A stretch of 22,547 nt of DNA from Candidatus Aenigmatarchaeota archaeon (GTDB lineage: Archaea; Aenigmatarchaeota; Aenigmatarchaeia; Aenigmatarchaeales; JACQIB01). A program made the position numbers and the translations under genes. Positions 2,566 through 20,599 of this stretch are shown here, in pieces (the first letter of the stretch is position 1; each line of letters begins with the position of its first letter). The stretch is taken from NCBI GenBank assembly GCA_038999215.1, contig JAWABM010000005.1, positions 16,498-39,044 of the forward strand. The letters run 5' to 3'. The notes beneath the pieces were generated by a model that was not told where the DNA came from, did no database searches, and was given only the letters and a program-made list of their open reading frames with translations.

Positions 2566-2853
2566 TCACTGCTTCTTCGCCAATGCTATCTCTATCGAGC
2601 TGACGTTCAGCTTCTCGCCGTTGTCGCCCTGCACTGTTTCGGTCCCTATGAGCACGTTCTTCACGTGCGTGTCCGTAACGAACTTGTTCCTCACTATCTC
2701 CGCCACGTCCACGGCATGGCTTATGGCCCTGCCCCTGGCCTTGAGGAGCACCTCGGGCCTGCCGTCATTGAACTGCGTGACGCAGGCCAGAACATAGCTC
2801 ATTGCGGGCTTCTTGCCGACGAAAACTACGTTGCTCTCCGCATTTTCTGCCAT
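2566..2853 (-). CDS. albA: DNA/RNA-binding protein Alba
   Basis: [14 protein letters not shown]...[22 protein letters not shown]...VSSIEI matches the Alba family signature; GGGGGTG ribosome-binding site upstream. Confidence 0.96.
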
Positions 2854-2880: not shown

Positions 2881-3219
2881 TTACTTGATTCTCTGCGGTG
2901 CCGGAAGGTTCGGGCATGCGCCTGCGCACACCACGGTCTTGCAGCACAAATCCTGGTTCCTCGCATCCGTTGCGTAATCCTTGCACTTGGATTGGCAATA
3001 GTTGTACAGGTTCGTGTAGTTCAGGTACTTGAACGGTATGTTCGCCGTGTTGGAATCGCAGCCCCTGCTCTGCAGCTCGCTACAGGCCGCGTTTCTCGCC
3101 GAGTTCTCCGCCAGAACGTTGCCCGGGTTCGCGAAGTATATCGCTATCAGCCCGAGCATCACCAGCACTGCCACTGCTATTATGACGAGAACGTTCACCG
3201 GAAGCTCTATCCCTTTCAC
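2881..3219 (-). CDS. Class III signal peptide (pilin-like) protein, Cys-rich
   Basis: KG|IELPVNVLVIIAVAVLVMLGLIAIYF. GTG 3219 follows AGGTGA, complementary to this genome's anti-SD; alternative start 3228. Confidence 0.85.
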   Translation of the reverse strand: MKGIELPVNVLVIIAVAVLVMLGLIAIYFANPGNVLAENSARNAACSELQSRGCDSNTANIPFKYLNYTNLYNYCQSKCKDYATDARNQDLCCKTVVCAGACPNLPAPQRIK

Positions 3220-3264
3220 TGTTTTCACCTAAGACCTATTTGGGACACTATATATAAATAGTTT

Positions 3265-3564
3265 TCATGGCACGCTGCATCCGCAGAACTTCCTGCATTC
3301 GTTTGCTGTCGTTTTTCCGTAGCATTCGCTGCAGACCTCCTGCAGGTTCGTGATCAGCCTGCCGTTCTGCGTGAAGTTGGCCACCTTTATGTTTTTCGGA
3401 TCGTTGCTGCAGTCCTGCACCATCCTCAGGCAGGCGCTCGCCTTGGCCGAATCGCAGCTCATGCTCGGCGTCGTGAATATGAGCACGACCAGCGTTATCA
3501 GCACTATGACCGCCACAACGATTATGACCAGCACGTTTATTGGAAGTTCGAGCCCTTTTTTCAT
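3265..3564 (-). CDS. Class III signal peptide (pilin-like) protein, Cys-rich
   Basis: MKKG|LELPINVLVIIVVAVIVLITLVVLIF; paralog of 2881-3219. Confidence 0.85.
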   Translation of the reverse strand: MKKGLELPINVLVIIVVAVIVLITLVVLIFTTPSMSCDSAKASACLRMVQDCSNDPKNIKVANFTQNGRLITNLQEVCSECYGKTTANECRKFCGCSVP

Positions 3565-3597: not shown

Positions 3598-4569
3598 TTA
3601 TCCGCTTGAAACCTCGGCTTTCCTTGGCAGTTCGTAATCATAGTTTGTCAGGAACTCGAGCCTCGTGCTGTCGAAGCCGCCGGGATAGAGCGAGATGGAT
3701 TTGCTGTCCTCTATTGACACCTTGATTCCGAGCTTTACCAGGACCGTGTCTGTCCTTATCAGGGTGTCCTTTGTCACGCTTATGTTGAACGCATAGCCGT
3801 ACTTGCTGGCCAGGACCGATTCCATCTGCTCCCTTATATCGGATATTGCGCTGTTGGCCGCCTCGCTGTCATAGAAGTCAAGCCCGGCCAAGCCAGCCCG
3901 GTCGCCGAGCCCGCACTGGAACGAGTATTTTATGAACTCTGTGGCGTTCCTCTGCATCGCCTTGCATTCCTCGCCTAGCTTGCCTTTTAGGCTGTCGGCC
4001 GCCGAGGCGGCCAGCGCCCTGTCCTCGTTCTCGAACAGGTTGCGGCCGGCCCTGAGAAGGCCGAAATATGACGTTTTGACTGTCCTGTTGAACCTTCCAG
4101 AAGTCTCCACCGTGACCCTGGGGTTCTTTGCGTTGATTATGACGAACCTCTTGCCGCCGGACGCCGTCACATCGCTGTCCGTATGGCTTATTGAAAGGTC
4201 CGCAGCATCCCAGCTGACGGTCATGTTCTTGAAGAGCGTTATCTCCGATAGCCTGCCCATGTCGCCCGCCACGCTGTCGTTGAATTTTTCCTCCAGCTCG
4301 GCCATTGTGGGAGAGGCCGCCGACCACCTGGCAAAACCCCCGCCCTCGCTGCCGAGCGACGTTTGCCGCAGCAGCGAGAACCCGGCCGCCGAATCTATCG
4401 TCCTTTTCATCTCTTCCGCGGCCAGCTGCGCCGCATAAACGTGCCTTGCGCTGCTCGCTATGCTAACCCTCTTGTCGTACTCCACCGACTTGTCGAGCAC
4501 GAACAGCACGGTGACTATGATTATTATCACTATGCCCAATATGAAGGCTGTCGCCCCTTTCATCATCAT
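3598..4569 (-). CDS. Pilin-like / N-terminally anchored secreted protein (~323 aa)
   Basis: MMMKG|ATAFILGIVIIIIVTVLFVL then a soluble domain; ATGA overlap with the upstream stop. Confidence 0.8.
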   Translation of the reverse strand: MMMKGATAFILGIVIIIIVTVLFVLDKSVEYDKRVSIASSARHVYAAQLAAEEMKRTIDSAAGFSLLRQTSLGSEGGGFARWSAASPTMAELEEKFNDSVAGDMGRLSEITLFKNMTVSWDAADLSISHTDSDVTASGGKRFVIINAKNPRVTVETSGRFNRTVKTSYFGLLRAGRNLFENEDRALAASAADSLKGKLGEECKAMQRNATEFIKYSFQCGLGDRAGLAGLDFYDSEAANSAISDIREQMESVLASKYGYAFNISVTKDTLIRTDTVLVKLGIKVSIEDSKSISLYPGGFDSTRLEFLTNYDYELPRKAEVSSG

Positions 4570-5069
4570 CCGCTCCACAGGGACAGCGCGGCCCTGTCCT
4601 TTCCCGCCTGTACCACGTACTCGGTCCTCACTGCGTGCTCGGTGTGGACGCCCATCCTGGCAAGCTCGGTCTTCCGGCCGCCCGCCTCGAGCATGAGCGT
4701 GTAGGGCTTGTCCGTGAGCTGGCTCATTATGATGGCGCTGGACCTTTTCAGGTCTATCTCATTGCCGTTCAGCGTGAAGTTCGTGCTGCCAGCGCTCACC
4801 GAATAGGTCAGAAGGTCCCTGATCCTGTAGCCGTGGTCGGTGGTCTCCAGGTAGGAAATCATAATGTTGTCCGCGTTCGGCGAGTCGTAGAGCAGCACGC
4901 CGTTCACGTACACCGTGACGTTGACGTGCATTATGAACATCACCAGGGCCGCTATGAAGAGCATGGTCAGCGTGCCGAAAAGGGACGTTATGAATGTGAA
5001 TATGTCCGTGAGGTAGAATATCCCGCCTTTCCCTTTACGCCATGGCCTGTACCCTGACAACCATCTCAC
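4566..5069 (-). CDS. Pilin-like protein (~165 aa)
   Basis: RKGKG|GIFYLTDIF followed by a hydrophobic stretch; start uncertain (GTG 5069, or TTG 5060 after AGGTGA). Confidence 0.75.
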   Translation of the reverse strand: MRWLSGYRPWRKGKGGIFYLTDIFTFITSLFGTLTMLFIAALVMFIMHVNVTVYVNGVLLYDSPNADNIMISYLETTDHGYRIRDLLTYSVSAGSTNFTLNGNEIDLKRSSAIIMSQLTDKPYTLMLEAGGRKTELARMGVHTEHAVRTEYVVQAGKDRAALSLWSG

Positions 5070-5451
5070 CTGCCACTATCCTGTCTTCCGAAAACTTGAG
5101 CGAGACAGGGAACGTTCTCGTCTCGCCTTTTGTCGTCGCTCCGCCGAAGCTCCACGTCCTTCCGCCGCCCGTTATTTTCACGCTGTACACCGCATCCAGG
5201 TCGATGCACAGCTCCTTTGCGCTGTCCAGCTTGCTCACCTCGAACACGCCCCTCCTCGGCTCGCCGTTCACCGTCTCCGTGAGGCACGGCGCGGAAAGCG
5301 CGGCCTGCCCCAAGTTCAGCGTCATCCTGTCCGCGTCGAATATGACTATGCTCCCGTTGTACGATATCGACTGCATCACCATGCCGAGTATGCCGAATAT
5401 CAGTATCACGGTCGTCATCAGCTTCAGCAGGAACTCGGCTATTTCCATCAT
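5035..5451 (-). CDS. Pilin-like protein without a basic leader (138 aa)
   Basis: MMEIAEFLLKLMTTVILIFGILGMVM; ATG 5451 overlaps the upstream TGA (ATGA). The longer track start at 5556 lies inside the upstream gene. Confidence 0.75.
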   Translation of the reverse strand: MMEIAEFLLKLMTTVILIFGILGMVMQSISYNGSIVIFDADRMTLNLGQAALSAPCLTETVNGEPRRGVFEVSKLDSAKELCIDLDAVYSVKITGGGRTWSFGGATTKGETRTFPVSLKFSEDRIVAGEMVVRVQAMA

Positions 5452-5906
5452 TCGACACCCAATGTTATCTTGCCGTCCGTTTTGTTGACCACGAACGCCT
5501 TGTTTTCGGCCGGGTTCATCGTCACGTTGCCTGTCGCCACGTTCGTGCCCGCGCACCTGACATACGCTATCGGGCTCGGCGGGCCGAACTTCACGTACCC
5601 TCCCCTCTCGATGGTACGGCCTCCCCTGTAGGCGTCCTCAGGCGGCAGCACGTTTATGGTCTTCGCGCCGAGCACAGCTGTGAGCGGCGTCGGCGTCACT
5701 GCCAGCTCGACCGTCATGTTCCCGCCCCCTATGCAGCCTGCGCCTATGAAGCTGGCCAGCGAGTCCTGGACAGTCGAAGGCGCGGAATAGAGCATGTCCG
5801 AGACGAGCTGGGCGCCGTAGGTCACGGCCCAGTAGAACACCACGAATATCAGGACTATCACTCCCACCAGCACGATTATGTCGTAAAGCTGCGTGCCTCC
5901 CTTCAT
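5448..5906 (-). CDS. Class III signal peptide (pilin-like) protein (152 aa)
   Basis: MKG|GTQLYDIIVLVGVIVLIFVVFYW; GGAGG RBS and ATGA overlap at 5903-5906. Confidence 0.8.
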   Translation of the reverse strand: MKGGTQLYDIIVLVGVIVLIFVVFYWAVTYGAQLVSDMLYSAPSTVQDSLASFIGAGCIGGGNMTVELAVTPTPLTAVLGAKTINVLPPEDAYRGGRTIERGGYVKFGPPSPIAYVRCAGTNVATGNVTMNPAENKAFVVNKTDGKITLGVE

Positions 5907-7906
5907 TTGGCCGCCTCCGTGGCGTTGCCGAACGCCACCTTGCTGTAGTCGAGCGTGTACAGCCCTATCTCGTCCCCGCCCGTTATTATGAAGTTCTCCT
6001 TCCCTGCCTCCTTGAAGTACTTGTGCCAGCCCTGCTCCGATTCCGACCACTTCGCCACCGAGTCGCAGGTCCGCACCTGATTGCACAGGTCCGACGCCGT
6101 GGCGCTGTAGCCCTCGGGCACGATGAAATAGACGTACCTGAACGGCTCGATGCCGTATTCCGCGCCCTTCACGGCCTCCACTGCGCCCTCCCTCGCCGAG
6201 CCGAGCGCGACCATGCTCCAGTTGAACTTGCAGCTGCCCGACGCGTCGGCCAGCCTGAGGTACCTGAATGCGTAGCCGTCCTTCAGCAGCATCCTCGTCG
6301 TGTTGCCCTCCATCGAGGTCTCGGCTATCTTGGCCCAGCTCTTCGTGTCGTTGGATGCCTGCACCGTCACCGTGGTGTTACAGCCCTTGGCCGCCGGCTT
6401 CAGCGAGATGAATACGGTCCTTTCGTTCCTCACGGTGCCGAAGTCGTACGTGTGCGTCGCATAAGCGCCGCAGTTCTCGTAGTTGTGGTCTGCCCTAGAC
6501 TCGGCCGTCTCAAGGCACTCTTTGGTCGAGTTGCCCTTGATCAGCGAGCACATTACCCCTATCCTGGATTCGCTAATCCCCATGTAGCTCGTCAGCTGCT
6601 TCAGCGTGATGTTCCTGAAGTCTAGCGGCACCCTTTTCAGCTCGGACTCGGGCACGTCCGCATATATGTCCGGCTTTATCACCTTCACCAGGTCCGCGGG
6701 ATCGTCGCAGGTTATCTTCGTGGCGTTCTTCTCCGCGCCGTACTCGTACTTGAGGCAGCATGACATGAGGACGGAGCTGGCGCTGTCGAAGCTCTTGCAG
6801 CCCGACTGCATGTTAGCTTCCGTGAGCTCGCTGAAAGGCCAGCCCGGCCAGAGCGCGGCCGTTTCCGCGCAGGCCCCCGCTCCCCTGCAGTAGTCGACAT
6901 CCAGGCACGGTATCGGCGCCACCATCGCGATGAACTGCGTCCCGCTGGCGGGTATGGCCAGCTTCTTGCCGGCCGTCTTGGCTGCGAGCTTGGCGACGGC
7001 CTTGGCGCTGGGCTTCGACCCGAGCGAAAGCACGTCGGTGATCAGGTCGACGACATAGCATCCTGTTTCCGCGCTGTACGCCGTCAGAAGAGACGCGAGC
7101 GTCCCCTCGTCGGAATAGCAGTAGTTGGAGGCGTCCCCAGCGCTGCACTTGTCTACATAGCCGTAGATCGTGCTTCTTCCGCCCTCCTTGCCCACGTCGT
7201 CCCCCCTCCTGAACGTCACCTTGCCGTAGCAGGGCGCTATGAGATAGAATGTCGGGTCGTTGTCCGCTATCAGCATTCCGTCCCTGACTATCCTCACGTT
7301 CGTCACGTTCGGCGAGCTTATCTTGACCACCTCCTCTCTCCCGCGGATGTTGAAGCAGAGCGCGTTCCCGCTCGTGCAGGGCTCTTCCAAATACTTGGTC
7401 TTGAAGAACTCCTTGAACTGCGTGGTTGTCGGCCTCACGTCCCATGGCCTCTGCCCCGCGAACGAGCGCTCGAACGGATACGACTCCGAGAAGTGGAACA
7501 GGCTCTTCAGCTTCTCGTACGCGTCGACGGCGGCTACGCCCGTGGCGGGCTTTTCGCCGGGCGTGAACACGCTCTCGACAGGCTTCTTCGGGAACTCCTT
7601 GTAGTAGGCCATGTATTCCGGCACCATCATCCCCATGTAGGCTTGCACATAGCCCACGCCGTAGAGCGAGAACGTGTCCTCCTGGCAGAACCTGACGGAA
7701 GCGACGTTGCACGGCTTGCCTGTCACAGGGTCCTTGTAGTTCTCGTAGTTGCCCGCGCACTCTATGGCCCTCTTCATCTCCTCGATGCTCAGCCTGGCAA
7801 GCTCGTCGCAGTTCGAGCGGGGGAACACGACATACACGAGTATCAGCGTGAGTATGGCTATGATGACGGAGACCGCGAACATGACGGCGTGCGATGTCCC
7901 GCGCAT
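5903..7906 (-). CDS. Large Cys-rich pilin-like/adhesin candidate with a discoidin (F5/8 type C)-like domain (667 aa)
   Basis: MRG|TSHAVMFAVSVIIAILTLILVYVVF, many Cys, and VTVQASNDTKSWAKI...FRYLRL, the typical discoidin/galactose-binding fold pattern. Confidence 0.8.
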   Translation of the reverse strand: MRGTSHAVMFAVSVIIAILTLILVYVVFPRSNCDELARLSIEEMKRAIECAGNYENYKDPVTGKPCNVASVRFCQEDTFSLYGVGYVQAYMGMMVPEYMAYYKEFPKKPVESVFTPGEKPATGVAAVDAYEKLKSLFHFSESYPFERSFAGQRPWDVRPTTTQFKEFFKTKYLEEPCTSGNALCFNIRGREEVVKISSPNVTNVRIVRDGMLIADNDPTFYLIAPCYGKVTFRRGDDVGKEGGRSTIYGYVDKCSAGDASNYCYSDEGTLASLLTAYSAETGCYVVDLITDVLSLGSKPSAKAVAKLAAKTAGKKLAIPASGTQFIAMVAPIPCLDVDYCRGAGACAETAALWPGWPFSELTEANMQSGCKSFDSASSVLMSCCLKYEYGAEKNATKITCDDPADLVKVIKPDIYADVPESELKRVPLDFRNITLKQLTSYMGISESRIGVMCSLIKGNSTKECLETAESRADHNYENCGAYATHTYDFGTVRNERTVFISLKPAAKGCNTTVTVQASNDTKSWAKIAETSMEGNTTRMLLKDGYAFRYLRLADASGSCKFNWSMVALGSAREGAVEAVKGAEYGIEPFRYVYFIVPEGYSATASDLCNQVRTCDSVAKWSESEQGWHKYFKEAGKENFIITGGDEIGLYTLDYSKVAFGNATEAAK

Positions 7907-7939: not shown

Positions 7940-8269
7940 TTACTTACAGCAGGCTTTCTGCACTCCCGCCCTGGTCGCGGCATAGCCGGATTTGCCCGCC
8001 AGCGCGGTTATCTTCATGAACCCGCTGCTGTCGATTTTCTTGTCGACCGCGCAGTCTATGTCCTCGAACGCCGCGTAATTGCCCTGGTCGTTCTTCTGGC
8101 AGAAGCCGTCCATCACGAACCTTGTGCAGCAGGCGGTGAGCGTCGCCGAGATTTCCTGGCTGCTGGCCGTGCCTGTCAGGGGCGCGAGCATGAAGTACGC
8201 GACCAGCACCACGACGAAACCTATGATCACCAGTATTATCAGCGTGACCGCGAGATCCACGCCTTTCAT
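7940..8269 (-). CDS. Class III signal peptide (pilin-like) protein (109 aa)
   Basis: MKG|VDLAVTLIILVIIGFVVVLVAYFML; Cys pairs (ACC...C...C...ACC). Confidence 0.85.
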   Translation of the reverse strand: MKGVDLAVTLIILVIIGFVVVLVAYFMLAPLTGTASSQEISATLTACCTRFVMDGFCQKNDQGNYAAFEDIDCAVDKKIDSSGFMKITALAGKSGYAATRAGVQKACCK

Positions 8270-8424
8270 GCCCTTGCGCCTCCGCTTATCATGCTCCTCA
8301 GCTGGTCCAGGAGCGGGTTGGACGCTCCGGATATCATGAGCACCAGCAGCGCCGCTATTATGGCCGCTATCAGCACTATTATCAGTATCACCGTCGCGTT
8401 TATCGGGAGCTCGACGCCTCTCAT
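8266..8424 (-). CDS. Micro-pilin-like protein (52 aa), not in ORF track
   Basis: Manual translation MRG|VELPINATVILIIVLIAAIIAALLVLMISGASNPLLDQLRSMISGGARA*; GGAGG RBS; stop/start overlaps at both ends. Confidence 0.85.
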   Translation of the reverse strand: MRGVELPINATVILIIVLIAAIIAALLVLMISGASNPLLDQLRSMISGGARA

Positions 8425-8579
8425 CAGTAGCCCCTCCTAAGCAGCGAGTTGAAGAAATCGACCAGGCCCTGCGCCGGGTCAGCCGCCTGTCCGCTGAACA
8501 CGCCCATCACTATCAGGCCCGTGAGCAGCAGCGCTATCGCCACTATGACTATCATCAGGAACGTCATGGCGCTTATCAT
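8424..8579 (-). CDS. Micro-pilin-like membrane peptide (51 aa), not in ORF track
   Basis: MISAMTFLMIVIVAIALLLTGLIVMGVFSGQAADPAQGLVDFFNSLLRRGY*; GAGGGTGA RBS; ATGA and TGATG overlaps. Confidence 0.8.
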   Translation of the reverse strand: MISAMTFLMIVIVAIALLLTGLIVMGVFSGQAADPAQGLVDFFNSLLRRGY

Positions 8580-8668
8580 CCTATCACCCTCCACAGGACG
8601 AAGGCCGCTATTATGGCCAGTATTATCATCACCAGGAAGCTTATAGTTTCCTCGGATATGCCCTTCAT
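8576..8668 (-). CDS. Minimal pilin-like peptide (30 aa), not in ORF track
   Basis: MKG|ISEETISFLVMIILAIIAAFVLWRVIG*; AGGTG RBS; TGATG overlap upstream, ATGA overlap downstream. Confidence 0.8.
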   Translation of the reverse strand: MKGISEETISFLVMIILAIIAAFVLWRVIG

Positions 8669-8838
8669 CACACCTTGCCTCCCATGCCGCTTAGTATGCC
8701 CTGCAGCCAGTCCGGCTTGGTGATGTCCATGCCCGACTGGTAGGCCTGATAGGCGATGTATATCGCCACCGCGACTATTAGCAGCACTATGAATACGAAT
8801 ATTGCCATTTCGATGGACGCCTGCAGCCCTTTAGACAT
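8668..8838 (-). CDS. Micro-pilin-like protein (56 aa)
   Basis: MSKG|LQASIEMAIFVFIVLLIVAVAIYIAY; GGAGG RBS before ATG 8838. Confidence 0.85.
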   Translation of the reverse strand: MSKGLQASIEMAIFVFIVLLIVAVAIYIAYQAYQSGMDITKPDWLQGILSGMGGKV

Positions 8839-10669
8839 TGTAGAACGCCTCCAGCCTCTCATTGTCAACTATTATAAGGGAATAGTCGTAATAAAGCGTG
8901 TCGGTCCTCACGCCGTCGTATTTGGCGCTTGGTCCGCCCTTGCAGTCATACGACCACCTGTTGGTCTTGTCTGTGCAGCTGTTTATGCAGAACTTGCATT
9001 CGCCCGGCACGCCCATTGCCCCGCAGCTCGGCCCGCCCCAGCCCGTGCTCTTGTCGTACATCCAGTACGTGACTATCACGTTGTAGGTCTTGTTCGGTTC
9101 GAGGTACTCCTCGTTGACTATCAGGTTCGAATTCACCTGTATGGTCTTGAAGTCGGGGTTGTCGGCCTTGAGCTGCTTCTGGCATGAGTCCTTCTCCGAC
9201 CAGTACTTGTAGTTCATGTCGCCGAACGTAGAGTCTGTAGCCCATTCCATTAGCGACCCGACGATCCAGCCCCCCATTTCCACGCTCTTGTCGCTGCTCA
9301 TTATCTTCTGCCTTGCCCTCTTGTACTGCGTTTGCTTGGGCAGGGTGACGTAGCAGTCCGGCCCGTCGCATTGGTTGTAGCGGAACGTCCAGAGCGCGCT
9401 GCTGTCGCTCTCGCTCTTCACCTGGATGGCTTTCACGTATTCTGCCGCGAAGTCGTTTATCAGCATCTTCTGGCTGGGCCTGAACGTGATGTTCCTTATC
9501 ATCCTCAGCTCGGGGTACAGCAGCCCTGCCGGGGTGCCCCTGGCATTGTAATCATTGTCCTTGAACAGCGCGCCGAGGTCCTTCGCGACAGCGGCAGGGT
9601 CGGCCGTTCCTATGTCCTGGCCCTTCGGGATCCTCGGCATGCTCACCTGATACGATTTCGTGCCCGTGTTCCAGTAGACCACGTACATGAAGTCGGGCAC
9701 GCAGTTGTTTGGCGTGTAATAGCCCGTGGCCTGGCTGGTGACGCTGCAGTTCTCATAGCCCGGCGGGAAGAAGTCCACCTTGCTGTCCTTGACCTTGTAG
9801 GTGCTCTCCTGATAGTCCTTCCCGTACCTCGTGCTTGTGAAGTAGTCCGCTCCGCCCGATGTCCAGCTCGTTATCCTGTCCGCGTCCGGGCATATCTGGC
9901 AGTCTTGCACCCAGTCCGGAGAAACCGTCGAGGCGACCTTTTTCTTCTTGGTGAGATATTCTACCAAAGATGGCGGAAATATGTCTTTGATAATATCCTT
10001 TGTCGCCTGCCCTGTCATCGCCAGCACGTTGGTGACTTCGACGTTCTCGCACTTGCTGTTGCCGAACTTCAGGTTCTCCCCGCCTACGTTCACCGTGCTT
10101 GCGCCGGTGCAAAGCTTCTTCTCGCCCACCTTCATCCTGTTGAGCAGAAGCGAGACGCAGGCCTCGTCGAGGTGCTGCGGGCAGTTCGGAAGGAGCGGCG
10201 TGTCGAGCCCGCACGCCTCCGCTATCTTCTTCCTCTGGTCCTCTGTCAGGCTGGCCGACTCCCAGTAATGCGTGAATGTGCCGTAGTTGATCGTATCAAT
10301 GTCTATTGCGAACTTCTTCGCGCCGATGACCCTGAGCTTGTCGCTCAGCGCGAGCGCCTGGCCCCTGCCGGCCGAGTCGGACTCGCCGTACCGGACGAAG
10401 TCGTCCCTTATCGTCTTGGCGATCGAGCAGCCCACTTCCGTCGCCGTGGTCGGCAGGCCGAGCCCTGTCAGGTCCACGCTCTCCACCCCGAACGCCGAGG
10501 AAGCGAGCGGCGGCCTTATCTTCGGTATCGAGCCTATCACCATCTGCGGGAACATCTTGCCGAGGTCCCCGCCCGCCGCAAGCAGCCCTATGAGAAGCAG
10601 CGAAATTATTATGATTCCTACGACAGCCGCCAGCGATTCGACCGCTATTCCTCTCATTCCTGCCACCAA
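8831..10669 (-). CDS. Large Cys-rich pilin-like/adhesin candidate (~610 aa)
   Basis: MRG|IAVESLAAVVGIIIISLLLIGLL (ATG 10657 or TTG 10669) followed by a Cys/Thr/Tyr-rich extracellular-type region. Confidence 0.8.
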   Translation of the reverse strand: MVAGMRGIAVESLAAVVGIIIISLLLIGLLAAGGDLGKMFPQMVIGSIPKIRPPLASSAFGVESVDLTGLGLPTTATEVGCSIAKTIRDDFVRYGESDSAGRGQALALSDKLRVIGAKKFAIDIDTINYGTFTHYWESASLTEDQRKKIAEACGLDTPLLPNCPQHLDEACVSLLLNRMKVGEKKLCTGASTVNVGGENLKFGNSKCENVEVTNVLAMTGQATKDIIKDIFPPSLVEYLTKKKKVASTVSPDWVQDCQICPDADRITSWTSGGADYFTSTRYGKDYQESTYKVKDSKVDFFPPGYENCSVTSQATGYYTPNNCVPDFMYVVYWNTGTKSYQVSMPRIPKGQDIGTADPAAVAKDLGALFKDNDYNARGTPAGLLYPELRMIRNITFRPSQKMLINDFAAEYVKAIQVKSESDSSALWTFRYNQCDGPDCYVTLPKQTQYKRARQKIMSSDKSVEMGGWIVGSLMEWATDSTFGDMNYKYWSEKDSCQKQLKADNPDFKTIQVNSNLIVNEEYLEPNKTYNVIVTYWMYDKSTGWGGPSCGAMGVPGECKFCINSCTDKTNRWSYDCKGGPSAKYDGVRTDTLYYDYSLIIVDNERLEAFYNV

Positions 10670-10698: not shown

Positions 10699-10887
10699 TC
10701 ACACTTCGATTATCCTCGGCCCGAAGAAGAAGTACATCATGTCGTAGTATATGCTCCTCACGAACTGGTAGACGAAGCTGTTCGGGCCCTGGCTGACCAC
10801 GAAAGCTATGAATATGGCCATGAAGGCCACGCCTATTATGAGCACAACTATGAACATCGTCGACTCCTCGGAAAGATGGTAAGGCAT
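10699..10887 (-). CDS. Micro-pilin-like membrane peptide (62 aa)
   Basis: MPYHLSEESTMFIVVLIIGVAFMAIFIAFVV; GAGGTGA RBS. Confidence 0.75.
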   Translation of the reverse strand: MPYHLSEESTMFIVVLIIGVAFMAIFIAFVVSQGPNSFVYQFVRSIYYDMMYFFFGPRIIEV

Positions 10888-10891
10888 TCCA

Positions 10892-11080
10892 TCACCTCAG
10901 TATTACCTTGAGCTGCGCCATCATGTAGAGCGCTATGGCCGCGAACAGGTCCTGCACGGCCTTGAATATGTCGCCCGGCCCGGCTCCCGTCAGCACGCCG
11001 AGCAGCAGCAGGAATATGGCGACCACCATGATTATGGTCACCACGAGCCATATCGACTCCTTTGTCATTTTTACCGGCAT
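10892..11080 (-). CDS. Micro-pilin-like membrane peptide (62 aa)
   Basis: MPVKMTKESIWLVVTIIMVVAIFLLLLGVL; AGGTGA RBS before ATG 11080 (alternative GTG 11089). Confidence 0.75.
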   Translation of the reverse strand: MPVKMTKESIWLVVTIIMVVAIFLLLLGVLTGAGPGDIFKAVQDLFAAIALYMMAQLKVILR

Positions 11081-11089
11081 GCCGTTCAC

Positions 11090-11263
11090 CTATATCCCGG
11101 GCACCTTCGACCCGAGGTTCTCGAACATCTTCGCCAGCCCCGTCCAGAAGTCGAACTTCGGCAGGTCCAGCTGGCCCGTGTAAGCGAGCAGGCCTATTAT
11201 CACCATTATTATCGCCACCGCGAATATGAGGTATATTATCAGCATTACCGCCTTGTCTTCCAT
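11090..11263 (-). CDS. Micro-pilin-like membrane peptide (57 aa), not in ORF track
   Basis: MEDKAVMLIIYLIFAVAIIMVIIGLLAYTGQLDLPKFDFWTGLAKMFENLGSKVPGI*; fills the gap between its neighbours. Confidence 0.8.
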   Translation of the reverse strand: MEDKAVMLIIYLIFAVAIIMVIIGLLAYTGQLDLPKFDFWTGLAKMFENLGSKVPGI

Positions 11264-11264
11264 G

Positions 11265-11798
11265 TCATCCCACCGCCCCGGGCATCACCGCGAACTCCGC
11301 CCTGAACTTGTCTATTGGGCCTTTCCCAGCGGCCGCCGATATCTCCCTCAGCTTCGCGCCCTCCGGGAACGTGAACGTCTTGCACGCCTCGCTGTACGGG
11401 CTTGTCGTAACAGCTTCCTTTGCTTCCTGGCCGTCGCCATAGGTCACCTTGAACGTGATCAAGGTGTACTGTCTCGGCACTGCGCAGACCGTCACGTTGC
11501 TCGCCCACACGCTGCCGAACTTGTCCTCCACGTTGACGAACTGCACCGAATCGCAGTCGCCCATGCCGATGGCCGGCATCCTGCACTTCGCGCACTCGTC
11601 CGAGACGACCGAGCTGAAGCAGGCCTTCCCTACCTTGCCGTCGAAGCTTATGCCCGAGCTCTCGGTGCCTATCTCCATTGGCTGCAGTACCGAAAATATG
11701 AACTGTCCGACGAGGAAAAAGGCGACCACGACCACTGCCGCGAGTATTATCCATATTACCATCATCACGACTTCGTTCGTTATGCCTTTCATGGTCAT
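11265..11798 (-). CDS. Class III signal peptide (pilin-like) protein (177 aa)
   Basis: MTMKG|ITNEVVMMVIWIILAAVVVVAFFLV; ATGA overlap with the platform gene stop. Confidence 0.85.
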   Translation of the reverse strand: MTMKGITNEVVMMVIWIILAAVVVVAFFLVGQFIFSVLQPMEIGTESSGISFDGKVGKACFSSVVSDECAKCRMPAIGMGDCDSVQFVNVEDKFGSVWASNVTVCAVPRQYTLITFKVTYGDGQEAKEAVTTSPYSEACKTFTFPEGAKLREISAAAGKGPIDKFRAEFAVMPGAVG

Positions 11799-13954
11799 CC
11801 GCCTGATGCCGCGAGGTTGAGCGTTTCGGGCGTGAGCAGCGAGGTTATCGCAGGCCCGAACAAGCCGTACGTCACGAGCCAGCTAATGACATAGATGAGG
11901 ACGCCTATCGTCAGCGTCCTGCCTAGCGTGGACCTCAGGCCGACAGCGTCGTCCCCGAACTCTATCCTGTTCACGAACACCGAGAGCAGTATGATGGTCT
12001 CTATCATGTAGATGCCGACTATTATCTGGAATTCCGCCGGCCCGATTGGCATCTTGCCGCCCATCATGGACGGCCCGAACATGAAGCTGTACTGGAACGA
12101 GTTCATGCCCTCCCCTCCCGCCGACACGAGCCCGGCTATCTGCGAGCCGAGCTTTGAGAGTATGTTTATTATCACGACCGCCATGGTTATCGTGACGCCT
12201 GCCACGAGCGGTGTGAGTATCGTGGCGAGGAACCTCATCGAGGACAGCGTCTCCCCGAGCACGCTGTTGACCTCCTCCTTCACCTCGTGCACGCCGTCGA
12301 GGTACTTGGATATCGTGAGCATCGCCGACGACGTCGCCGCCATGCCCTTCTTGCTGGATTCCAGTATGGTGGACATTATCGACCTTATCAGCCGCGACGG
12401 GTAGTGCCAGACGGCGCCCACCTCCTTGTCGAAGAGCGCCTGCTCGAAGGTGTAGCCGAACTTCTTCATGTTCTCGCTGGTTATCTTGAACAGGTCGGCT
12501 ATCTTCATGCCCTTCATGTTGGCCGAAGCCCTCTCTATCGCCAGCTCTATTGGCGTGCCCTCGGATATCTGGTTGCCCAGCTGGAACAGGGCGACCGAGA
12601 ACTCGTTCTCTATCTTCTCTATCTCGCTCCTTATCTTCATCTTCTGTAGGCTGTCCAGCACGCAGTACGTCACTATCGACATCGATATCGCCGCCGTCAC
12701 CAGGAGGGAGAGGTTCACGTTCGCGAAACTGGCCCTCGTGCACTCCAGCTCCACCTCGGCCGATGCCGGGCTTATGCACGGCCCGACCGTGTATATCGAT
12801 GCCGCCATGAGGGGCAGGAGCACCATCAGCGAGAACACCCATATCGGCACCAGCGCGCCGCCTATCCTGAGCTTGCCCATCGGGGGCACGCCCCTTGCGA
12901 GCGATATGTCCGGCTGCGAGAACGTCGGCGGCCTGGCCTTGAGTATGTAGTCGATGAACACCCAGAGGAACACCGGAAGTATGAAGTTGTAGCCGAGGAA
13001 CAGCATGGCCGGCTTTATGACGTCGGCCATGAAGATGACTATTATCGGGAACAGCACCAGGCCCATGACCGGAAGAAGGACGCCCATCGCGTGTATGAGC
13101 ATGACCGGCATCCTCAGCCCGCCGACGTAGTGCTTTGTCCTTTCCATCGTGCCGTTCAGTATGACGCTGAGGGTCTCCTCGAAGAGCTTTTCCCTCCTCT
13201 CCTTCTCCCTCACTGAGCCCCTCAGCAGGTTGAGCGCCTCGGCGAACTCCTCGTTCCTGCCCTTCCACTTGTCTATGTATGACGCTATGGCCGCGTCGGC
13301 CGTGGAATAGACGCCGACGTTTATGTCCCACAGGAGCTTCTTGAGGTCCCAGGCGAGCGGGCCCTTCAGGTTCTCGGACGCGAACTTTATTGCGCCCTCC
13401 ATGTTCGGGCTGGTCCGCATGTAGATTATCATGTAAAGCACCGCGAGGACAGAGTCCGCCGACATCTTGAGTATGGTCTTCTTCGCGTTGGCGGACGGGT
13501 AGGTGAAGATGTAGTAGAACGCGCCGATCATGATTATGACCAGCATTACCGTGAAGAAGCCCAAGTTATAGACGAGCGAAAGGAACGTGGCTATGAACAG
13601 CATGAAGAACGTCAGTATCGAGAAGGCGAGCACGCCCCTCGGCGTCACGCCGAGATAGCCGGTTTTTATGTCGTCGTCCATGCTCCTTGCAATGCCCGCC
13701 GGCGGGTCCACCGGAAGTATGCGGGCGGACGCGGAGCACAGCCTTTCGAACAGGTTTTTCGGCTGCTCCTTTATCTCTGCCAGAAACTCCCTGTATTCCG
13801 TGGCCTTCGTGGCGATCTGCTTCTTTTCGGGCAGCCTGAGCTCCGCGGAGCTTATTATCTTCTTGAGCTCCGCCCTTTTCGCTTCGAGCGCCTTTCTCCT
13901 GGCCTCCTCAAGTTCTTCCCTCTTGCTTTTTTTCCTGCCGAAAAGCCCCATCAT
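11795..13954 (-). CDS. Type IV pilus/T2SS-F family membrane platform protein (PilC/TadB-TadC/ArlJ-like, two F-type repeats)
   Basis: Polytopic membrane protein with two repeats (YMRTSPNMEGAIKFASE...; GNQISEGTPIELAIERAS...), directly downstream of the secretion ATPase with ATGA overlap. Confidence 0.88.
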   Translation of the reverse strand: MMGLFGRKKSKREELEEARRKALEAKRAELKKIISSAELRLPEKKQIATKATEYREFLAEIKEQPKNLFERLCSASARILPVDPPAGIARSMDDDIKTGYLGVTPRGVLAFSILTFFMLFIATFLSLVYNLGFFTVMLVIIMIGAFYYIFTYPSANAKKTILKMSADSVLAVLYMIIYMRTSPNMEGAIKFASENLKGPLAWDLKKLLWDINVGVYSTADAAIASYIDKWKGRNEEFAEALNLLRGSVREKERREKLFEETLSVILNGTMERTKHYVGGLRMPVMLIHAMGVLLPVMGLVLFPIIVIFMADVIKPAMLFLGYNFILPVFLWVFIDYILKARPPTFSQPDISLARGVPPMGKLRIGGALVPIWVFSLMVLLPLMAASIYTVGPCISPASAEVELECTRASFANVNLSLLVTAAISMSIVTYCVLDSLQKMKIRSEIEKIENEFSVALFQLGNQISEGTPIELAIERASANMKGMKIADLFKITSENMKKFGYTFEQALFDKEVGAVWHYPSRLIRSIMSTILESSKKGMAATSSAMLTISKYLDGVHEVKEEVNSVLGETLSSMRFLATILTPLVAGVTITMAVVIINILSKLGSQIAGLVSAGGEGMNSFQYSFMFGPSMMGGKMPIGPAEFQIIVGIYMIETIILLSVFVNRIEFGDDAVGLRSTLGRTLTIGVLIYVISWLVTYGLFGPAITSLLTPETLNLAASGG

Positions 13955-16188
13955 GACACCTTCTTTGCGGAATCCTTGAACCATGCGAGCCATTCGTCAT
14001 AGACTCGCCTGCTGTCCACATCGCCTGTCTCCTTCCTGCTTTTTTCGCAGAGCGAGTGGAACATCTGGTTTGAGGCCACGGTAGTCTCCGCCTCCATCAG
14101 CTCCCTGTTGCCGGTCTGCCTGGCTATGTCGACGATCGACTGGAGCACCTTCCCCCTGAGCTGTATGTTGTCCCATATCGCGTCCCACCTTCCGGCCCAG
14201 CCCGGCACGCTCTTGGATATCTGGTTTATCACGTAGCTTTCCCCGTTCATCAGCGTGTCCGTGGGCCTGAGCGAATCGCTGTCGCTGCTGTATTCAAGCA
14301 GGTTTACGAAGCCGTGCTCCTGCACAGGGTCCTTCTGCCAGTGCTTCCTCACCTCGGTGACTTCCGTCACCCTTCGCAGGCTCCTCAGCCCGTCCGGCGT
14401 CCTGAGCTTGTTGCACACCACCACGAGGTCGGTCGCCTTGAAGCTGGTCGGAGGCACGCCCAGGTCGTTCACGACCCTGTCGAACACTCCGTACGCCGAT
14501 TCGCCGTGTATGGTGCCGGCCACGACGTTGGCGAGCGCGCCGATGCGCATGGCTTCGTAGAGCGCCTTCGCCTCCACCGAACGGACCTCCCCGATGAACA
14601 GGCAGGAATCGCCGAGACGCAGCGCGGTGCGCAGCGCCTCCTCGGCCGGAAGCTCGAGCTCGACTCTTGTTATCACGGAGCGCGACTTTAGGCGCTCGAT
14701 GTTGTAGCCCAGCGAGCGCAGCGCCTCGACCGGAAGCTCGAATGTGTCCTCGACCGTGATTATCCTGTAATACGGTATCACCTGCAGCATTATCGAGCCC
14801 AGGAGCGACGTTTTGCCCGCCCCTCGCGTGCCCGCCACCAGCAGCGTTCTCCCGTATGAGGCCATGAACCACAGCAGGCCTGCGAAGAGGGGGTTGAAGA
14901 ATTTCGCGTCAAGGTAGAGCGGGAACGTCCACGGCTTGAACCTGTGCCTCCTCAGCGCGAACGCCAGCCCTTCCGGAGACAGCCGTGGCGCTATCGCCGC
15001 GACCCTTGCCACGCCTCCAGGCACCGCTATCTCTGTGTCGAGCACAGGGTTCGCCTCGTCCAGCGGCCGCCCGCTCAGAAGCTTGAACCTTGTGGAAAGG
15101 CGCTCTGCGTCGGTCACTGTCGGTATGAGGTTGGTCTCGCACTCGTCGAACTCCTGGTGGTTCACGAAGAGCGGCGTCCTGCCGAGCGGGCTGTTGATGT
15201 TTATGTCCTGTATCTTGGGGTCCGCGAGCAGCGGCTCTATTATACCGAATCCGGCCGTGTTGCGCGTCAGTATGGCGGCGAGCCTGGCCATCTGCTCCGA
15301 GCTCATCTTGAAGGCCCTGACGTCGGCCAGGTCCCTTATCAGCTCCTCGCTTATGGACTGGAATATCTCCCTCATCCTCTGCTGCTCCTTCATCTCAAGC
15401 TCGTGCGGCCTGCGCTTCTCCAGCACCCTGCGGGCGTCGTCGAGCAGGGTGTACTCCTCCTCGGTCAGCCTGAACTCCGGCGGAACAATGAAGTATATCG
15501 GCCTCACCTTGCCGGGCACCTTGTAAATCTCGACCTTTATGTCGCCTATGTCGTACTTGGAGAGCAGGTCGCCTTTCGGGGGCATTGTCACGTATTTGGT
15601 GAACATGAAGCTGGGCCTGGTGAGCGGATGGAACAGCTTCCTGTATACCGCCCTGTCGCCGACCTTGAGGCCGGCTATGAAGGGCTGCGCCCTCTTGATC
15701 AGCTCGGTCCGCTCGAGCACGTCCCTTATCGGCAGCAGCACGTTGTTCAGGTAGGCGTCCATGCACTCCTTGTCGACGCCCTTTTCATGCAGTATCCTGA
15801 CGTGGCGTATCTCCCTCAGCAGGCTCACGTACGCGCCTATCGGGTCGCCCCTCAGCTGGAACGTGGCGAAATTGTACAGCCACGAGTACCAGGCCGAACG
15901 GTACTTGTCGCACTTCACCGGCCCGAGCGCCTGCTGCGAGATGAGCTTCCGCTCCTTGGTTATCTCTATTATCGCGCCCGCTATCTCCGACAGCATCGCG
16001 GTCTGCTCGTAATCGTACTCATTGTCCCTTGTCTCGGTCAGAATTATCGTGTGGACCTTGCGGTCCGTGACCAGGCGGTCGATTACCCTGGCCATTATAA
16101 CGTCGAAGTCCTCTATGTTGGACCCGAATATTCCTCCGAGGCAGTTCATCTTCAGGACTCCGTTTTCGACTTCGATTTCATATACCAT
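13951..16188 (-). CDS. Type II/IV secretion system ATPase (PilB/TadA/VirB11/ArlI family), 745 aa
   Basis: GFGIIEPLLADPKIQDININ, Walker A GTRGAGKTS, Asp box ITVEDTFEL, ALRLG..., Walker B LFIGEVR, His box GTIHG. Confidence 0.95.
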   Translation of the reverse strand: MVYEIEVENGVLKMNCLGGIFGSNIEDFDVIMARVIDRLVTDRKVHTIILTETRDNEYDYEQTAMLSEIAGAIIEITKERKLISQQALGPVKCDKYRSAWYSWLYNFATFQLRGDPIGAYVSLLREIRHVRILHEKGVDKECMDAYLNNVLLPIRDVLERTELIKRAQPFIAGLKVGDRAVYRKLFHPLTRPSFMFTKYVTMPPKGDLLSKYDIGDIKVEIYKVPGKVRPIYFIVPPEFRLTEEEYTLLDDARRVLEKRRPHELEMKEQQRMREIFQSISEELIRDLADVRAFKMSSEQMARLAAILTRNTAGFGIIEPLLADPKIQDININSPLGRTPLFVNHQEFDECETNLIPTVTDAERLSTRFKLLSGRPLDEANPVLDTEIAVPGGVARVAAIAPRLSPEGLAFALRRHRFKPWTFPLYLDAKFFNPLFAGLLWFMASYGRTLLVAGTRGAGKTSLLGSIMLQVIPYYRIITVEDTFELPVEALRSLGYNIERLKSRSVITRVELELPAEEALRTALRLGDSCLFIGEVRSVEAKALYEAMRIGALANVVAGTIHGESAYGVFDRVVNDLGVPPTSFKATDLVVVCNKLRTPDGLRSLRRVTEVTEVRKHWQKDPVQEHGFVNLLEYSSDSDSLRPTDTLMNGESYVINQISKSVPGWAGRWDAIWDNIQLRGKVLQSIVDIARQTGNRELMEAETTVASNQMFHSLCEKSRKETGDVDSRRVYDEWLAWFKDSAKKVS

Positions 16189-16259: not shown

Positions 16260-16589
16260 ATGGCTGAGCTGGACATCCAGGCTGTTCTTAACGAGGCCTA
16301 CAGGAGGCTTAACGAGGACACTCGCAGGCTCCGCGCCCTTGAGGAAAGGAGCGACCTGCTCGAGAGCAGGATAGGCAGGCTTGAAGGCGACATTCTCAGG
16401 GTGCAGGACGACTCAAGAAAGAGGTTTGACGCGGTTGCAGCGGCGATGAAAGGTCTCGAGGAGAGGATGGTGCTCCTGGATAATGAGATAACCAAGCTGA
16501 ACAAGCTTATGGAGAAGACCGCCAGGAAGAGCGAGGTCGACGCGCTCCAGAACCTTGTTGAGCTCTACAATCCGTTCAAGAAGAAGTGA
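16260..16589 (+). CDS. Coiled-coil hypothetical protein ending in YNPF (109 aa)
   Basis: Heptad-rich sequence; GTGAT RBS; C-terminal ...LVELYNPFKKK. Confidence 0.85.
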   Translation: MAELDIQAVLNEAYRRLNEDTRRLRALEERSDLLESRIGRLEGDILRVQDDSRKRFDAVAAAMKGLEERMVLLDNEITKLNKLMEKTARKSEVDALQNLVELYNPFKKK

Positions 16590-16594
16590 TGATT

Positions 16595-17251
16595 ATGGCA
16601 GAGAAGGAGGTAATTCCGGTCGAGCTGGTGCAGAGGCTGGCTGCGCAAGGAAAGTCCGAACCGCAGATAATAGCCGAGCTCAGGGCGCACGGATTCACGC
16701 CCGCTCAGATAAGCAGGGCGATAAAGGAGGCCCTGAAGGAGGAGGTTTCTAAGCCAGAGGAGCTTGTGCCAGCGCCGCCAGCCAGGCCTTCCGAGCCGGG
16801 CGGCCCGCACAGGATGCCTGCCGAAGTAAGGCGCAGGGAGGCCGTCCTGCCGGTGCCGGCCGAGATAATGCCACGAAAGGAGAGGATGGCCTTGCCAGAA
16901 GCAAAGCAGCCTTCCGAAATATCGCTTCCCGTGCCTGCTGAAAGGCCTGCGCCGGCCGTGGTCGCCCCCAAGATAGGGGTCGAGGAGCTGGTCGAGCAGG
17001 TGGTCGAGGAGAAGTGGAAGGAGACGAGGGAAAAGATAGACGGCTTCCAGAAGCAGGTCGACGCGGCCAGGGAGGCCGTCGAGGGGATGAAGGCGCGCCT
17101 GGCGGCCGCCGGGACAGAGGAGAAAGGCGAGGAGAAAAGACTAGGCGCTCTCATTGAAAGCCTGCGGGCCGACGTGGAAAAGCTGGATTCGCGCACCGAA
17201 GCGCTCGAGAAGGCGTTCAAGGAATTCTCGTCGTACATGAAGAAGAAATAA
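16595..17251 (+). CDS. Hypothetical protein: small helical N-domain, Pro-rich linker, C-terminal coiled coil
   Basis: VQRLAAQGKSEPQIIAELRAHGFTPAQISRAI, Pro-rich spacer, EELVEQVVEEKW coiled coil; alternative starts 16586/16589. Confidence 0.85.
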   Translation: MAEKEVIPVELVQRLAAQGKSEPQIIAELRAHGFTPAQISRAIKEALKEEVSKPEELVPAPPARPSEPGGPHRMPAEVRRREAVLPVPAEIMPRKERMALPEAKQPSEISLPVPAERPAPAVVAPKIGVEELVEQVVEEKWKETREKIDGFQKQVDAAREAVEGMKARLAAAGTEEKGEEKRLGALIESLRADVEKLDSRTEALEKAFKEFSSYMKKK

Positions 17252-17276: not shown

Positions 17277-17627
17277 ATGGAGGAAGAAAAGATACACGTC
17301 AAGGTCAGGATTCCCGAACTGAACAGGACCGTCGAGATGGATGTCGGCTATCAGGAGAGCGGAAGGAAGATACTCGGCGACGTCTACGAAAAGTTCAAGC
17401 CCGAGTTCAACGTCAAGGGCGTCGACGACGTCAGGAAGATGGTGCTTTACGAGAGCAGCGGCAGGAATCCCCTGAACAGGAGCAAACAGGTCATCGATTA
17501 CGCCAAGCCGCACGAAAGGTTCGTGGAGGTCGTGGTCGGCACAATCGACGAATACAAGAAAAAGTTCTTCGACAAGGTCAAGGAGGACGCGGCGAGGATG
17601 CGCGCCGCGCGCGCGGCCAGCGCCTAG
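17277..17627 (+). CDS. Hypothetical protein, possible ubiquitin-like (beta-grasp) fold (116 aa)
   Basis: Pattern beta(IHVKVRI)-beta(RTVEMDV)-helix(GRKILGDVYEKF)-beta(MVLY)-PLNRSKQVIDY-beta(FVEVVV). Confidence 0.7.
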   Translation: MEEEKIHVKVRIPELNRTVEMDVGYQESGRKILGDVYEKFKPEFNVKGVDDVRKMVLYESSGRNPLNRSKQVIDYAKPHERFVEVVVGTIDEYKKKFFDKVKEDAARMRAARAASA

Positions 17628-19490: not shown

Positions 19491-20021
19491 CTACTCTTTC
19501 TCGAAAATCATCCACATTATGGCCGCCACCACGATGACAAAGAACAGTATGGACATCGTGGGCATTCCGCCGACAGCCACGCTTATTCCCAGAAGGTTCA
19601 GCCCGCCGGCGCCTATGAATATCAGTATTGCCAGTATTATGAAGAAGGCGGCAAAGTGCTTCCCGTACTTGTGCAGCACCTTTACTGGCACCAGCTTTTC
19701 GGATTTCTTGCCCTCCTTTTCTTCCACTACCTTTTCGAACACCGTCACGCCCGCGACCTCAAGGAACACGATGAATACCAGTATTCCCAGCACGACAAGT
19801 ATCAGGCTTTGCGCCATCTTCTCGAGCACGCTTATCAGCGCTGCCGGCGCCGCGAGTATCACGAAGAAAGCCGCGACTATGGATATGATCGCCCTTGAAG
19901 CCTTGTCCTTTGGCACCCCTGCCTGGCTCATTAACCCGTAGAGCGCAGCGAACGAGAGCAGCCAGAGCATTATCTGCGGGAACCCGAGGTTCGTCAGGTA
20001 TGCGGTTATCGGATCTGCCAT
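19491..20021 (-). CDS. Multi-pass membrane protein, paralog 1 of tandem family
   Basis: About 5 hydrophobic segments; LGFPQIMLWLLSFAALYGLM..VPKDKASRAIISIVAAFFV. Confidence 0.88.
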   Translation of the reverse strand: MADPITAYLTNLGFPQIMLWLLSFAALYGLMSQAGVPKDKASRAIISIVAAFFVILAAPAALISVLEKMAQSLILVVLGILVFIVFLEVAGVTVFEKVVEEKEGKKSEKLVPVKVLHKYGKHFAAFFIILAILIFIGAGGLNLLGISVAVGGMPTMSILFFVIVVAAIMWMIFEKE

Positions 20022-20060
20022 GCAATCACTCTATTATTTGCTCACCCTGCTTATATATCT

Positions 20061-20561: not shown

Positions 20562-20599
20562 TATAATCACATAATTCTTCGGTTACCCTCAATATATAT

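Follow-up and report, generated by a model that had tools for sequence, protein, structure and literature searches.

Four overlapping micro-genes for pilin-like proteins, one reduced to a leader and a helix, in a type IV filament gene cluster of an Aenigmatarchaeota genome

Introduction

Subunits of type IV filaments are held together by their hydrophobic helices, and minor pilins that are encoded together form a tip complex that starts assembly, some of them with grafted domains (PMC10191384). The class III rule for their leaders places G, A, or S at position −1 and a charged residue at −2, ahead of the hydrophobic domain (PMC4371748). Pilins devoid of a globular domain have been described from Tad systems, whose subunits of 40–60 aa consist of a helix without a C-terminal domain (PMC10710030), and from Methanococcus maripaludis, whose Epd pilins are 54–63 aa in their mature form (PMC3875500; PMC13705601). 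The Epd leaders comprise 5–13 aa ending in Gly and are followed by Gln at +1 and Glu at +5, and MMP1283 (EpdD), of the same 54–63-aa class, is an essential minor pilin of that organism (PMC3875500). EpdE (MMP1685), of arCOG06620, is the major pilin and belongs to the archaeal type IV filament system 1, or clade 1. System 1 has two platform genes with its ATPase and accounts for 18 of the 30 Aenigmatarchaeota rows among those listed in the S5 Table of a recent census (PMC13705601; 32 of 452 Aenigmarchaeota rows).

A 2016 census could not identify the cognate pilins of one nanoarchaeal ATPase type (PMC4858521), and a 2019 study described islands with FlaI/TadC beside many unrecognizable signal-peptide proteins, which were proposed to be diverse pilins (PMC6393860). 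The 2026 census found DPANN pilin genes scattered away from the ATPase and platform genes and called this puzzling (PMC13705601). Here we describe a contiguous cluster from an Aenigmatarchaeota genome that includes four overlapping micro-genes, termed ORFs A to D.

Organization of the cluster and its genomic setting

The window, by which we mean the whole 22,547-nucleotide stretch analyzed (contig JAWABM010000005.1, positions 16,498 to 39,044), comes from an assembly of 571 kb that is 88% complete (hereafter G000) and holds the end of an archaeal 16S rRNA gene and a tRNA-Ala. On its minus strand lie, in order, a secretion ATPase, a platform protein, 17 genes, and Alba, with all 17 intervening products showing an N-terminal hydrophobic segment:

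13951..16188, minus strand: secretion/pilus assembly ATPase, 745 aa (PF00437, E 8e-15)
11795..13993, minus strand: platform protein, 732 aa, with two T2SSF stretches (PF00482, E 0.0014, under the cut-off)
11265..11798, minus strand: 177-aa pilin-like protein immediately following the platform gene; most relatives have a headless protein of about 40 aa in this place
11090..11263, minus strand: 57-aa single-helix micro-ORF, absent from the list of the initial annotation
10892..11080, minus strand: 62-aa single-helix micro-ORF without a class III motif
10699..10887, minus strand: 62-aa single-helix micro-ORF without a class III motif
8831..10657, minus strand: large pilin-like protein with leader MRG, 608 aa, or 612 aa if started at an upstream TTG
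8668..8838, minus strand: ORF A, 56 aa (52 aa if cut), with leader MSKG, a hydrophobic helix, and a short amphipathic tail ending in glycines
8576..8668, minus strand: ORF B, 30 aa from its ATG (27 aa if cut), with leader MKG and a single hydrophobic helix
8424..8579, minus strand: ORF C, 51 aa, without a class III motif, with a hydrophobic helix and then an amphipathic C-terminal helix
8266..8424, minus strand: ORF D, 52 aa (49 aa if cut), with leader MRG, a helix, a conserved Pro, and an amphipathic helix
7940..8269, minus strand: E, 109-aa pilin-like protein with a small Cys-containing head
5903..7906, minus strand: F, large Cys-rich pilin-like protein of 667 aa, with a weak F5/8 type C match near the C-terminus (E 0.014, under the cut-off)
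3598..5906, minus strand: four pilin-like genes of 152, 138, 167, and 323 aa, with a weak DUF7285 match on the 138-aa one
2881..3564, minus strand: two pilins (99 and 112 aa) whose N-termini read KG↓xELPxN (the arrow marks the cut site), belonging to the most conserved helix class

The 667-aa protein F is likely an adhesin, and the two terminal pilins are likely the major subunits. ORF B would be 31 aa long if started at a GTG one codon upstream, and ORF C 56 aa long from an upstream GTG.

A Peptidase_A24 gene (273 aa, with eight hydrophobic segments by a simple scan) lies on another contig, so that ATPase, platform protein, and prepilin peptidase genes are all present in G000. The platform gene was matched in 56 of 61 genomes, at about 33–43% identity to genomes of the same class, and the peptidase gene in 30 of 31. 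Using a pattern of our own, we found 20 class III-like ORFs genome-wide, 11 of them within the 17-gene run. G000 has a second type IV-like cluster at the edge of another contig (C1, 24–3878, plus strand), with a 573-aa platform-like gene (25% identity), a 62-aa pilin with a KG leader, and four helix genes of 114–172 aa.

Around the run, positions 1–2241 carry the 16S gene, an opposite-strand HTH gene, and then tRNA-Ala, and the absence of a 23S gene from the window points to an unlinked rRNA operon. The Alba gene (2566–2853, minus strand) follows the pilin run here as it does in G001, G005, G031, G032, and L085. Beyond the ATPase, and divergent from it, are two coiled-coil genes (16260–17251, plus strand), then two similar-looking genes of 251 and 359 aa (17624–19455, minus strand), the longer with a nucleotidyltransferase domain, whose product may belong to the MNT-HEPN family of DPANN mentioned in the 2019 study (PMC6393860). 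Finally, 19491–21657 (minus strand) encodes four adjacent multi-helix membrane proteins of 163–189 aa, three of them visibly paralogous, with no Pfam match.

ORFs A to D are conserved genes

ORFs A to D belong to a long gene cluster for a type IV filament and are conserved. They adjoin each other and their neighbors by short overlaps, viz., 8 nt between the 608/612-aa gene and A, 1 nt for A/B, 4 nt for B/C, 1 nt for C/D, and 4 nt for D/E (TGATG or ATGA). Each start is preceded by a 5–6-nt match to GGAGGTGAT, the complement of the 3′ end of the window's 16S rRNA; matches of that length precede 1,034 of the 18,227 ATGs of the genome (5.7%). The coordinates, overlaps, and ribosome-binding matches agree with the initial annotation, which had described frames of 56, 30, 51, and 52 aa tiling the region without gaps. 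Its account of B as an MKG-led product of 27 aa once processed, lacking a globular head, is likewise accurate, B being composed of a leader and a helix only. In all four products, 17-residue Kyte-Doolittle means reach 3.2–3.6 over a hydrophobic stretch of about 20 residues.

Such an arrangement is not recovered by chance: when the region was simulated 4,500 times by a Markov model, four abutting strong-helix ORFs of 25–70 aa arose in none, the longest simulated chain being 1, and among 3,612 windows scanned across G000 chains of two or more such ORFs were found in only four, all at this locus. By a synonymous-codon score the annotated frame is the best of six for each of A–D (0.23–0.60 bits per codon; the long-gene average is 0.20). 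For comparison we took 47 stretches from relatives, in which genes, including their start codons, were called by our own heuristic tiling. At the positions of A, B, C, and D stand proteins of 54, 32, 52, and 51 aa in G001, of the same genus, 57, 32, 56, and 54 aa in G005, and 63, 77, 64, and 55 aa in G002. An alignment of F, used to scan metagenomes, yielded 11 loci, 10 of which have at least part of the A–D set (L090 begins within reach of E only, and L093, identical in sequence to G002, was counted once).

Purifying selection is most pronounced on the shortest of these genes. Against the metagenomic locus L087, B retains 93% identity, the highest of the six genes A–F (61–81% for the others), with a pN/pS of 0.07 (Fisher p=5e-8) and substitutions distributed 2/0/14 over codon positions 1/2/3; against G001 it shows 70% identity and a pN/pS of 0.26. 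The corresponding pN/pS values against L087 and G001 are 0.33 and 0.36 for A, 0.50 and 0.44 for D, and 0.62 (p=0.058, not significant alone) and 0.44 (p=1.5e-6) for C. All four have p<1e-4 against G001, while values of 0.77–0.87 against G005 are near saturation and hence uninformative. The stops fall at the same place in G000, L087, G001, and G005. Given this selection and the conserved relatives at the same positions, A–D are real genes and not fragments; both outcomes that the initial annotation had named as fatal to its proposal, unconserved frames and frameshift fragments of longer genes, are thereby contradicted, though 3 of the 11 relatives of B are longer. The 57-, 62-, and 62-aa micro-ORFs upstream of the 608-aa gene, all three overlooked in the initial annotation, are also kept in G001 (pN/pS 0.30–0.48).

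Family-level searches placed none of the four. Pfam and NCBIfam gave no match above the cut-off for A–D; ORF A is the genome's best match to PF04021 (Class_IIIsignal; DUF361), at 12.8–13.4 bits against a cut-off of 23.7. The D profile found nothing among PDB sequences, nor did Foldseek with a D model, for which a two-helix model is uninformative. That model predicts helices at residues 8–32 and 37–49 with a break at the conserved proline, and an amphipathic end helix after the break scores above shuffled sequences in 11 of 11 relatives for C and 12 of 12 for D. A listing of RNA elements had no entry for the A–D region, and the promoter scan, whose models are bacterial-type and hence uninformative here, recognized no separate promoter signal at the locus.

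Gene order in relatives

For the wider survey we chose 32 loci that hold a chain of helix genes, the other stretches being short or lacking the cluster on their contig. These loci contain 430 helix genes, 156 of ≤80 aa, 48 of ≤45 aa, and 9 of ≤35 aa, a few of them edge ORFs that are possibly false. An order-wide layout emerges: a gene of about 40 aa after the platform gene, a triad of 50–79 aa, large proteins, a Cys-rich gene of 85–131 aa (slot 'a'), a gene of 42–57 aa (slot 'b'), genes of about 100 aa, and F. The first of these positions also illustrates how much a head may vary: two genomes of one genus, G015 and G027, encode products of 40 and 126 aa there, respectively. The contiguity of the cluster is common and not universal, since in several genomes (G002, G009, G016) it lies apart from the platform gene or in the opposite orientation to it. 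By far the best conserved are the terminal 99/112-aa pilins (self score 63, as against 15–50 for the other slots).

In family f4 (L052 8821–8922, plus strand, from G016, and the G009 locus), a separate helix-only gene of 32–33 aa stands where E and F are found elsewhere, so genes of about 30 aa recur at another position. The numbers of small and large genes showed no co-variation (rho 0.09, p=0.72, 19 loci), which leaves without support a role as spacers for bulky heads, the core-filler function that had been suggested for these subunits.

ORF B is likely a truncated relative of a head-bearing subunit

The 11 relatives of B, assigned by position and sequence, have tails ranging from nothing to 60 residues, and eight of them are ≤48 aa long. 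The three longer ones comprise proteins of 77 and 90 aa and one in-frame run into C. Throughout this variation in the tail the K/R-G motif is kept in 11 of 11 relatives, whose identity to B spans 27–93%. The site itself, KG↓IS, is the one listed for Sulfolobus acidocaldarius UpsB (PMC4371748, Table 1). The 90-aa relative (L092, 625–897) bears a DUF4215-like Cys-repeat module (E 8e-6, just under the cut-off), a head unlike that of slot 'a'. In L096 (3956–4306) and L094 (1–257), the same DNA on two contigs, B runs in frame via a T-rich hydrophobic linker into C, and the C relative there keeps its own MKG start.

The helices carry a signal of position: with whole genera left out, 73 of 158 were assigned to the correct slot on 27 residues (chance, about 14), and in a control, profile halves recovered their own slot in 10 of 14 cases. 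The B profile ranked slot 'a' first in three subsets (all 11 relatives, the 8 short ones, and 4 core ones), with scores of 29–35 against 24–30 for the next slot. Outside this lineage the slot 'a' subunit has 85–131 aa, with a Cys-rich head in all 18 genomes tabulated. On a tree of the platform protein, obtained by a quick rather than a careful search, these genomes flank the family of G000 and include one member of it, G004. Since headed slot 'a' genomes thus lie on both sides of the family, the head is likely ancestral and B a truncation. As judged from sequence, B is likely an old, cut-down form of the head-bearing slot 'a' subunit, kept under selection. For the head of one slot 'a' protein, no nameable match was found in the ESM Atlas; B itself is absent from it, and the nearest clusters are unnamed proteins of 45–49 aa (0.80–0.82), which are leads only.

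The N-terminus of D, VELPIN, resembles those of the terminal, likely major, pilins and scores best against them (24–29), with the terminal pilins and E about equally similar. Profile comparison placed neither A nor C in a slot, and the C profile did not match slot 'b', its positional counterpart. In other families five positions precede F, and we dropped the idea that A, B, C, and D correspond to them one by one, because the profiles grouped B with slot 'a' and D with either the terminal pilins or E, and assigned neither A nor C.

Distribution of the class III motif

Of the four micro-pilins in the title of the initial annotation, three bear the class III motif before the helix, viz., A (KG↓L), B (KG↓I), and D (RG↓V). 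C begins MISAMTFL, with no K/R-G/A there nor from its upstream GTG, which corrects that title: C is not a canonical prepilin. Counts in relatives follow suit, with K/R-G in 8/10 for A, 11/11 for B, 3/11 for C, and 7/12 for D. Overall, 187 of 398 cluster genes carry the motif ahead of the helix, as against 2 of 29 helix genes taken as controls from other parts of G000, which argues that it is under selection. It is nevertheless distributed unevenly: 50 of the 156 small genes (≤80 aa) in the 32 loci have it, as do slot 'a' (16/18), F (7/15), and E (9/15), against 0 of 11 for the second large gene and 1 of 50 in the upstream triad outside this lineage, in whose tails a Cys pair is common. Among calls from the heuristic tiling, a possible upstream leader was found for 5 of 205 genes scored as leaderless. 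Orthologs of F change leader state six times on the platform tree, with at least four changes forced.

Where the leader is missing, the mature register is preserved. In the leaderless relatives of D, Met lies exactly 35 residues before the conserved Pro in all five, at most two residues before the cut site, and in the seven leader-bearing relatives the cut site lies 32–34 residues before that Pro. The mature register of leaderless and leader-bearing forms is likewise close for F (median 31.5 versus 29) and E (43 versus 43). The second residue of the five leaderless D genes is Thr, Ala, or Val. These residues permit removal of the initial Met. At the level of sequence, this suggests that leaderless subunits are made at near-mature length, although the five D genes may represent a single inherited event, and leaderless proteins may equally need only a membrane anchor.

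Possible roles of the micro-genes

We lean toward a reading in which A–D are headless minor pilins that fill fixed helix positions in the initiation or tip stack of a filament. The cluster would be expressed as one transcript with coupled translation, and the A24 peptidase would cut A, B, and D after the glycine, whereas C and the other leaderless subunits would be synthesized at close to their mature length. Extraction of the helices from the membrane by the ATPase and platform protein would follow a fixed order that also includes the minor pilins with heads and the two large adhesin-like proteins, after which the 99- and 112-aa major pilins would extend the fiber. Each gene would thus supply one helix to an ordered stack, the head being optional cargo and A–D the cargo-free cases. 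In B the helix would be the part under selection, with the head of its counterpart lost and, in one relative, an unrelated Cys-repeat module in its stead. This reading gains support from the selection on B, the strongest among A–F against L087, with its −1 glycine motif kept in 11 of 11, from the position-specific signal of the helices at positions where the heads vary, and from the precedent of MMP1283 as an essential minor pilin of the 54–63-aa class. It is weakened by the lack of the motif in C and its near-absence from the triad, which fit membrane-resident proteins as well, and by the failure to match any pilin family above the cut-off (Pfam, NCBIfam, PDB). A and C remain without a slot, C mismatches slot 'b', and the small- and large-gene counts are unlinked. 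Further, the surface of the Tad pilus is made up of the polar outer halves of its subunits (PMC10710030), and a 27-residue subunit has no such half.

In the main alternative, which we regard as appreciably less probable, A–D are pilin-derived single-pass membrane peptides that never enter a filament and serve as accessories of the assembly machine, such as platform partners, anchors, or chaperones whose helices pair with those of the large adhesins. The scarcity of the motif among the small genes, the triad, and the second large gene speaks for it; in C and D the amphipathic end helix could rest against the surface of the membrane, and small leaderless genes carry a slightly positive charge after the helix (+0.37 versus −0.36). 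A permanent anchor would, however, have no need of the peptidase motif kept in B and slot 'a', nor does this alternative account for the mature register being kept on leader loss, or for clear orthologs of the large Cys-rich F switching leader state too. The sizes of A, C, and D, within the Tad range (PMC10710030) and near that of Epd (PMC3875500), and the affinity of the D N-terminus to the terminal pilins would suit thin fibers of Flp or Epd type, helical throughout, in which A, C, and D served as alternative major subunits and B as a variant of them, but this is improbable: the coupled overlaps in mid-cluster with genes of 600–700 aa imply similar amounts, the terminal pilins are far better conserved, both the flp and Epd motifs are absent, and in clade 1 the gene for a major pilin usually stands alone (PMC4858521). 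Slightly less probable again is a regulatory function as decoy substrates or plugs tuning the peptidase or the ATPase–platform cycle; B, strongly conserved yet hardly more than a class III signal, would befit such a role, against which stand the fixed place inside a run of structural genes, the descent from a head-bearing subunit, and the lack of a recognizable separate promoter in a scan for bacterial-type promoters. That the four ORFs arose by chance, or are remnants of longer pilin genes undergoing decay or broken by frameshifts, is scarcely credible. The three longer B relatives and the in-frame passage of B into C in L096 hint in that direction, but pN lies well below pS in comparisons with two relatives for A, B, and D and with one relative for C, the stops are shared by four genomes, each gene has its own start and ribosome-binding match, and the simulations yielded no such chain; selection and simulations together refute it, unless the three closest genomes share assembly errors.

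Should the ordered-stack reading hold, a subunit would be reducible to a bare 27-residue helix and subunits could be born mature. If B is cut and assembled, its 27 residues would make it shorter than the Tad (40–60 aa) and Epd (54–63 aa) pilins (PMC10710030; PMC3875500) and would define the minimum unit handled by the machine. If the leaderless orthologs assemble, the class III leader would not be required for every subunit, and motif-based counts of pilins would be too low. DPANN archaea are thought to be dependent on contact with a host. Leaderless pilins being invisible to searches for class III motifs, their existence would explain why DPANN pilins look missing or scattered; the pilin candidates of this class form a contiguous, ordered run that family models do not recognize, with more than a third in genes of ≤80 codons. 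By extension, we tentatively picture the tip in Aenigmatarchaeota as an ordered stack of up to about 15 pilin helices with fixed slots, swappable heads, and optional leaders, the start codon lying at the cut site, a generalization that we hold with distinctly less confidence than the role proposed for A–D. The main interest of the locus, more than the existence of small pilins as such, is that a 27-residue truncation is strongly selected, that the genes follow a slot-like order in which heads and leaders are optional, and that the cluster is contiguous, in contrast to the scattering noted by the census.

Comparison with described systems

Features in common with the Epd pilins are the very short length without a globular domain, the KG-type leader, and the presence of large adhesin-like proteins in the cluster. 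Unlike in Epd, the leaders here are of 3–4 aa, followed in A, B, and D by L, I, and V at +1 and I, T, and I at +5; PF04021 stays below its cut-off, B is half the length, many subunits are leaderless, and 17 helix genes stand in one run. In contrast to system 1, the locus has one 732-aa platform gene, the second platform-like gene being on contig C1. The EppA-type peptidase of system 1, of which the Epd pilins are substrates, is a 9-TM protein (arCOG02300); a simple scan gives eight hydrophobic segments for the A24 peptidase of G000. With respect to Tad/Flp, of which the 45-aa PilA of Caulobacter crescentus with its continuous helix is an example, A (52 aa), C (51 aa), and D (49 aa) fall within the 40–60-aa range and B (27 aa) below it. 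The earlier description of the four as Flp-like or smaller thus stands as to size and not as to sequence or shape: the flp motif Thr2/Glu5/Tyr6 is absent and D is predicted to break at its proline. A–D are probably minor and not major subunits, in contrast to the Tad PilA, and because both motifs fail we file them under neither Epd nor flp.

The tip complexes PilHIJK, ComGD-GG, and Streptococcus sanguinis PilABC, the last with grafted domains, consist of two to four subunits, each of which has a head and a leader, whereas this locus offers up to 15 candidates, seven of them headless, and no sequence link to those complexes was found. A coiled-coil gene is described for the loci of subclade 4F (PMC4858521), and coiled-coil genes occur here in a divergent pair next to the ATPase, but no PilA-family pilin or S-layer-like gene was recognized. 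The text passages on DPANN islands in the 2019 study contain no micro-genes, fixed slots, optional heads, or leader loss (PMC6393860), and a literature search, with thin coverage of subscription journals, found no report of leaderless or headless archaeal micro-pilin arrays. Headless pilins of 40–63 aa are already known from Tad and Epd; what is new here is that the site of B is kept in 11 of 11 relatives despite the change of tail, that slot 'a' is the closest match to its helix, and that leaders have been gained and lost in other subunits.
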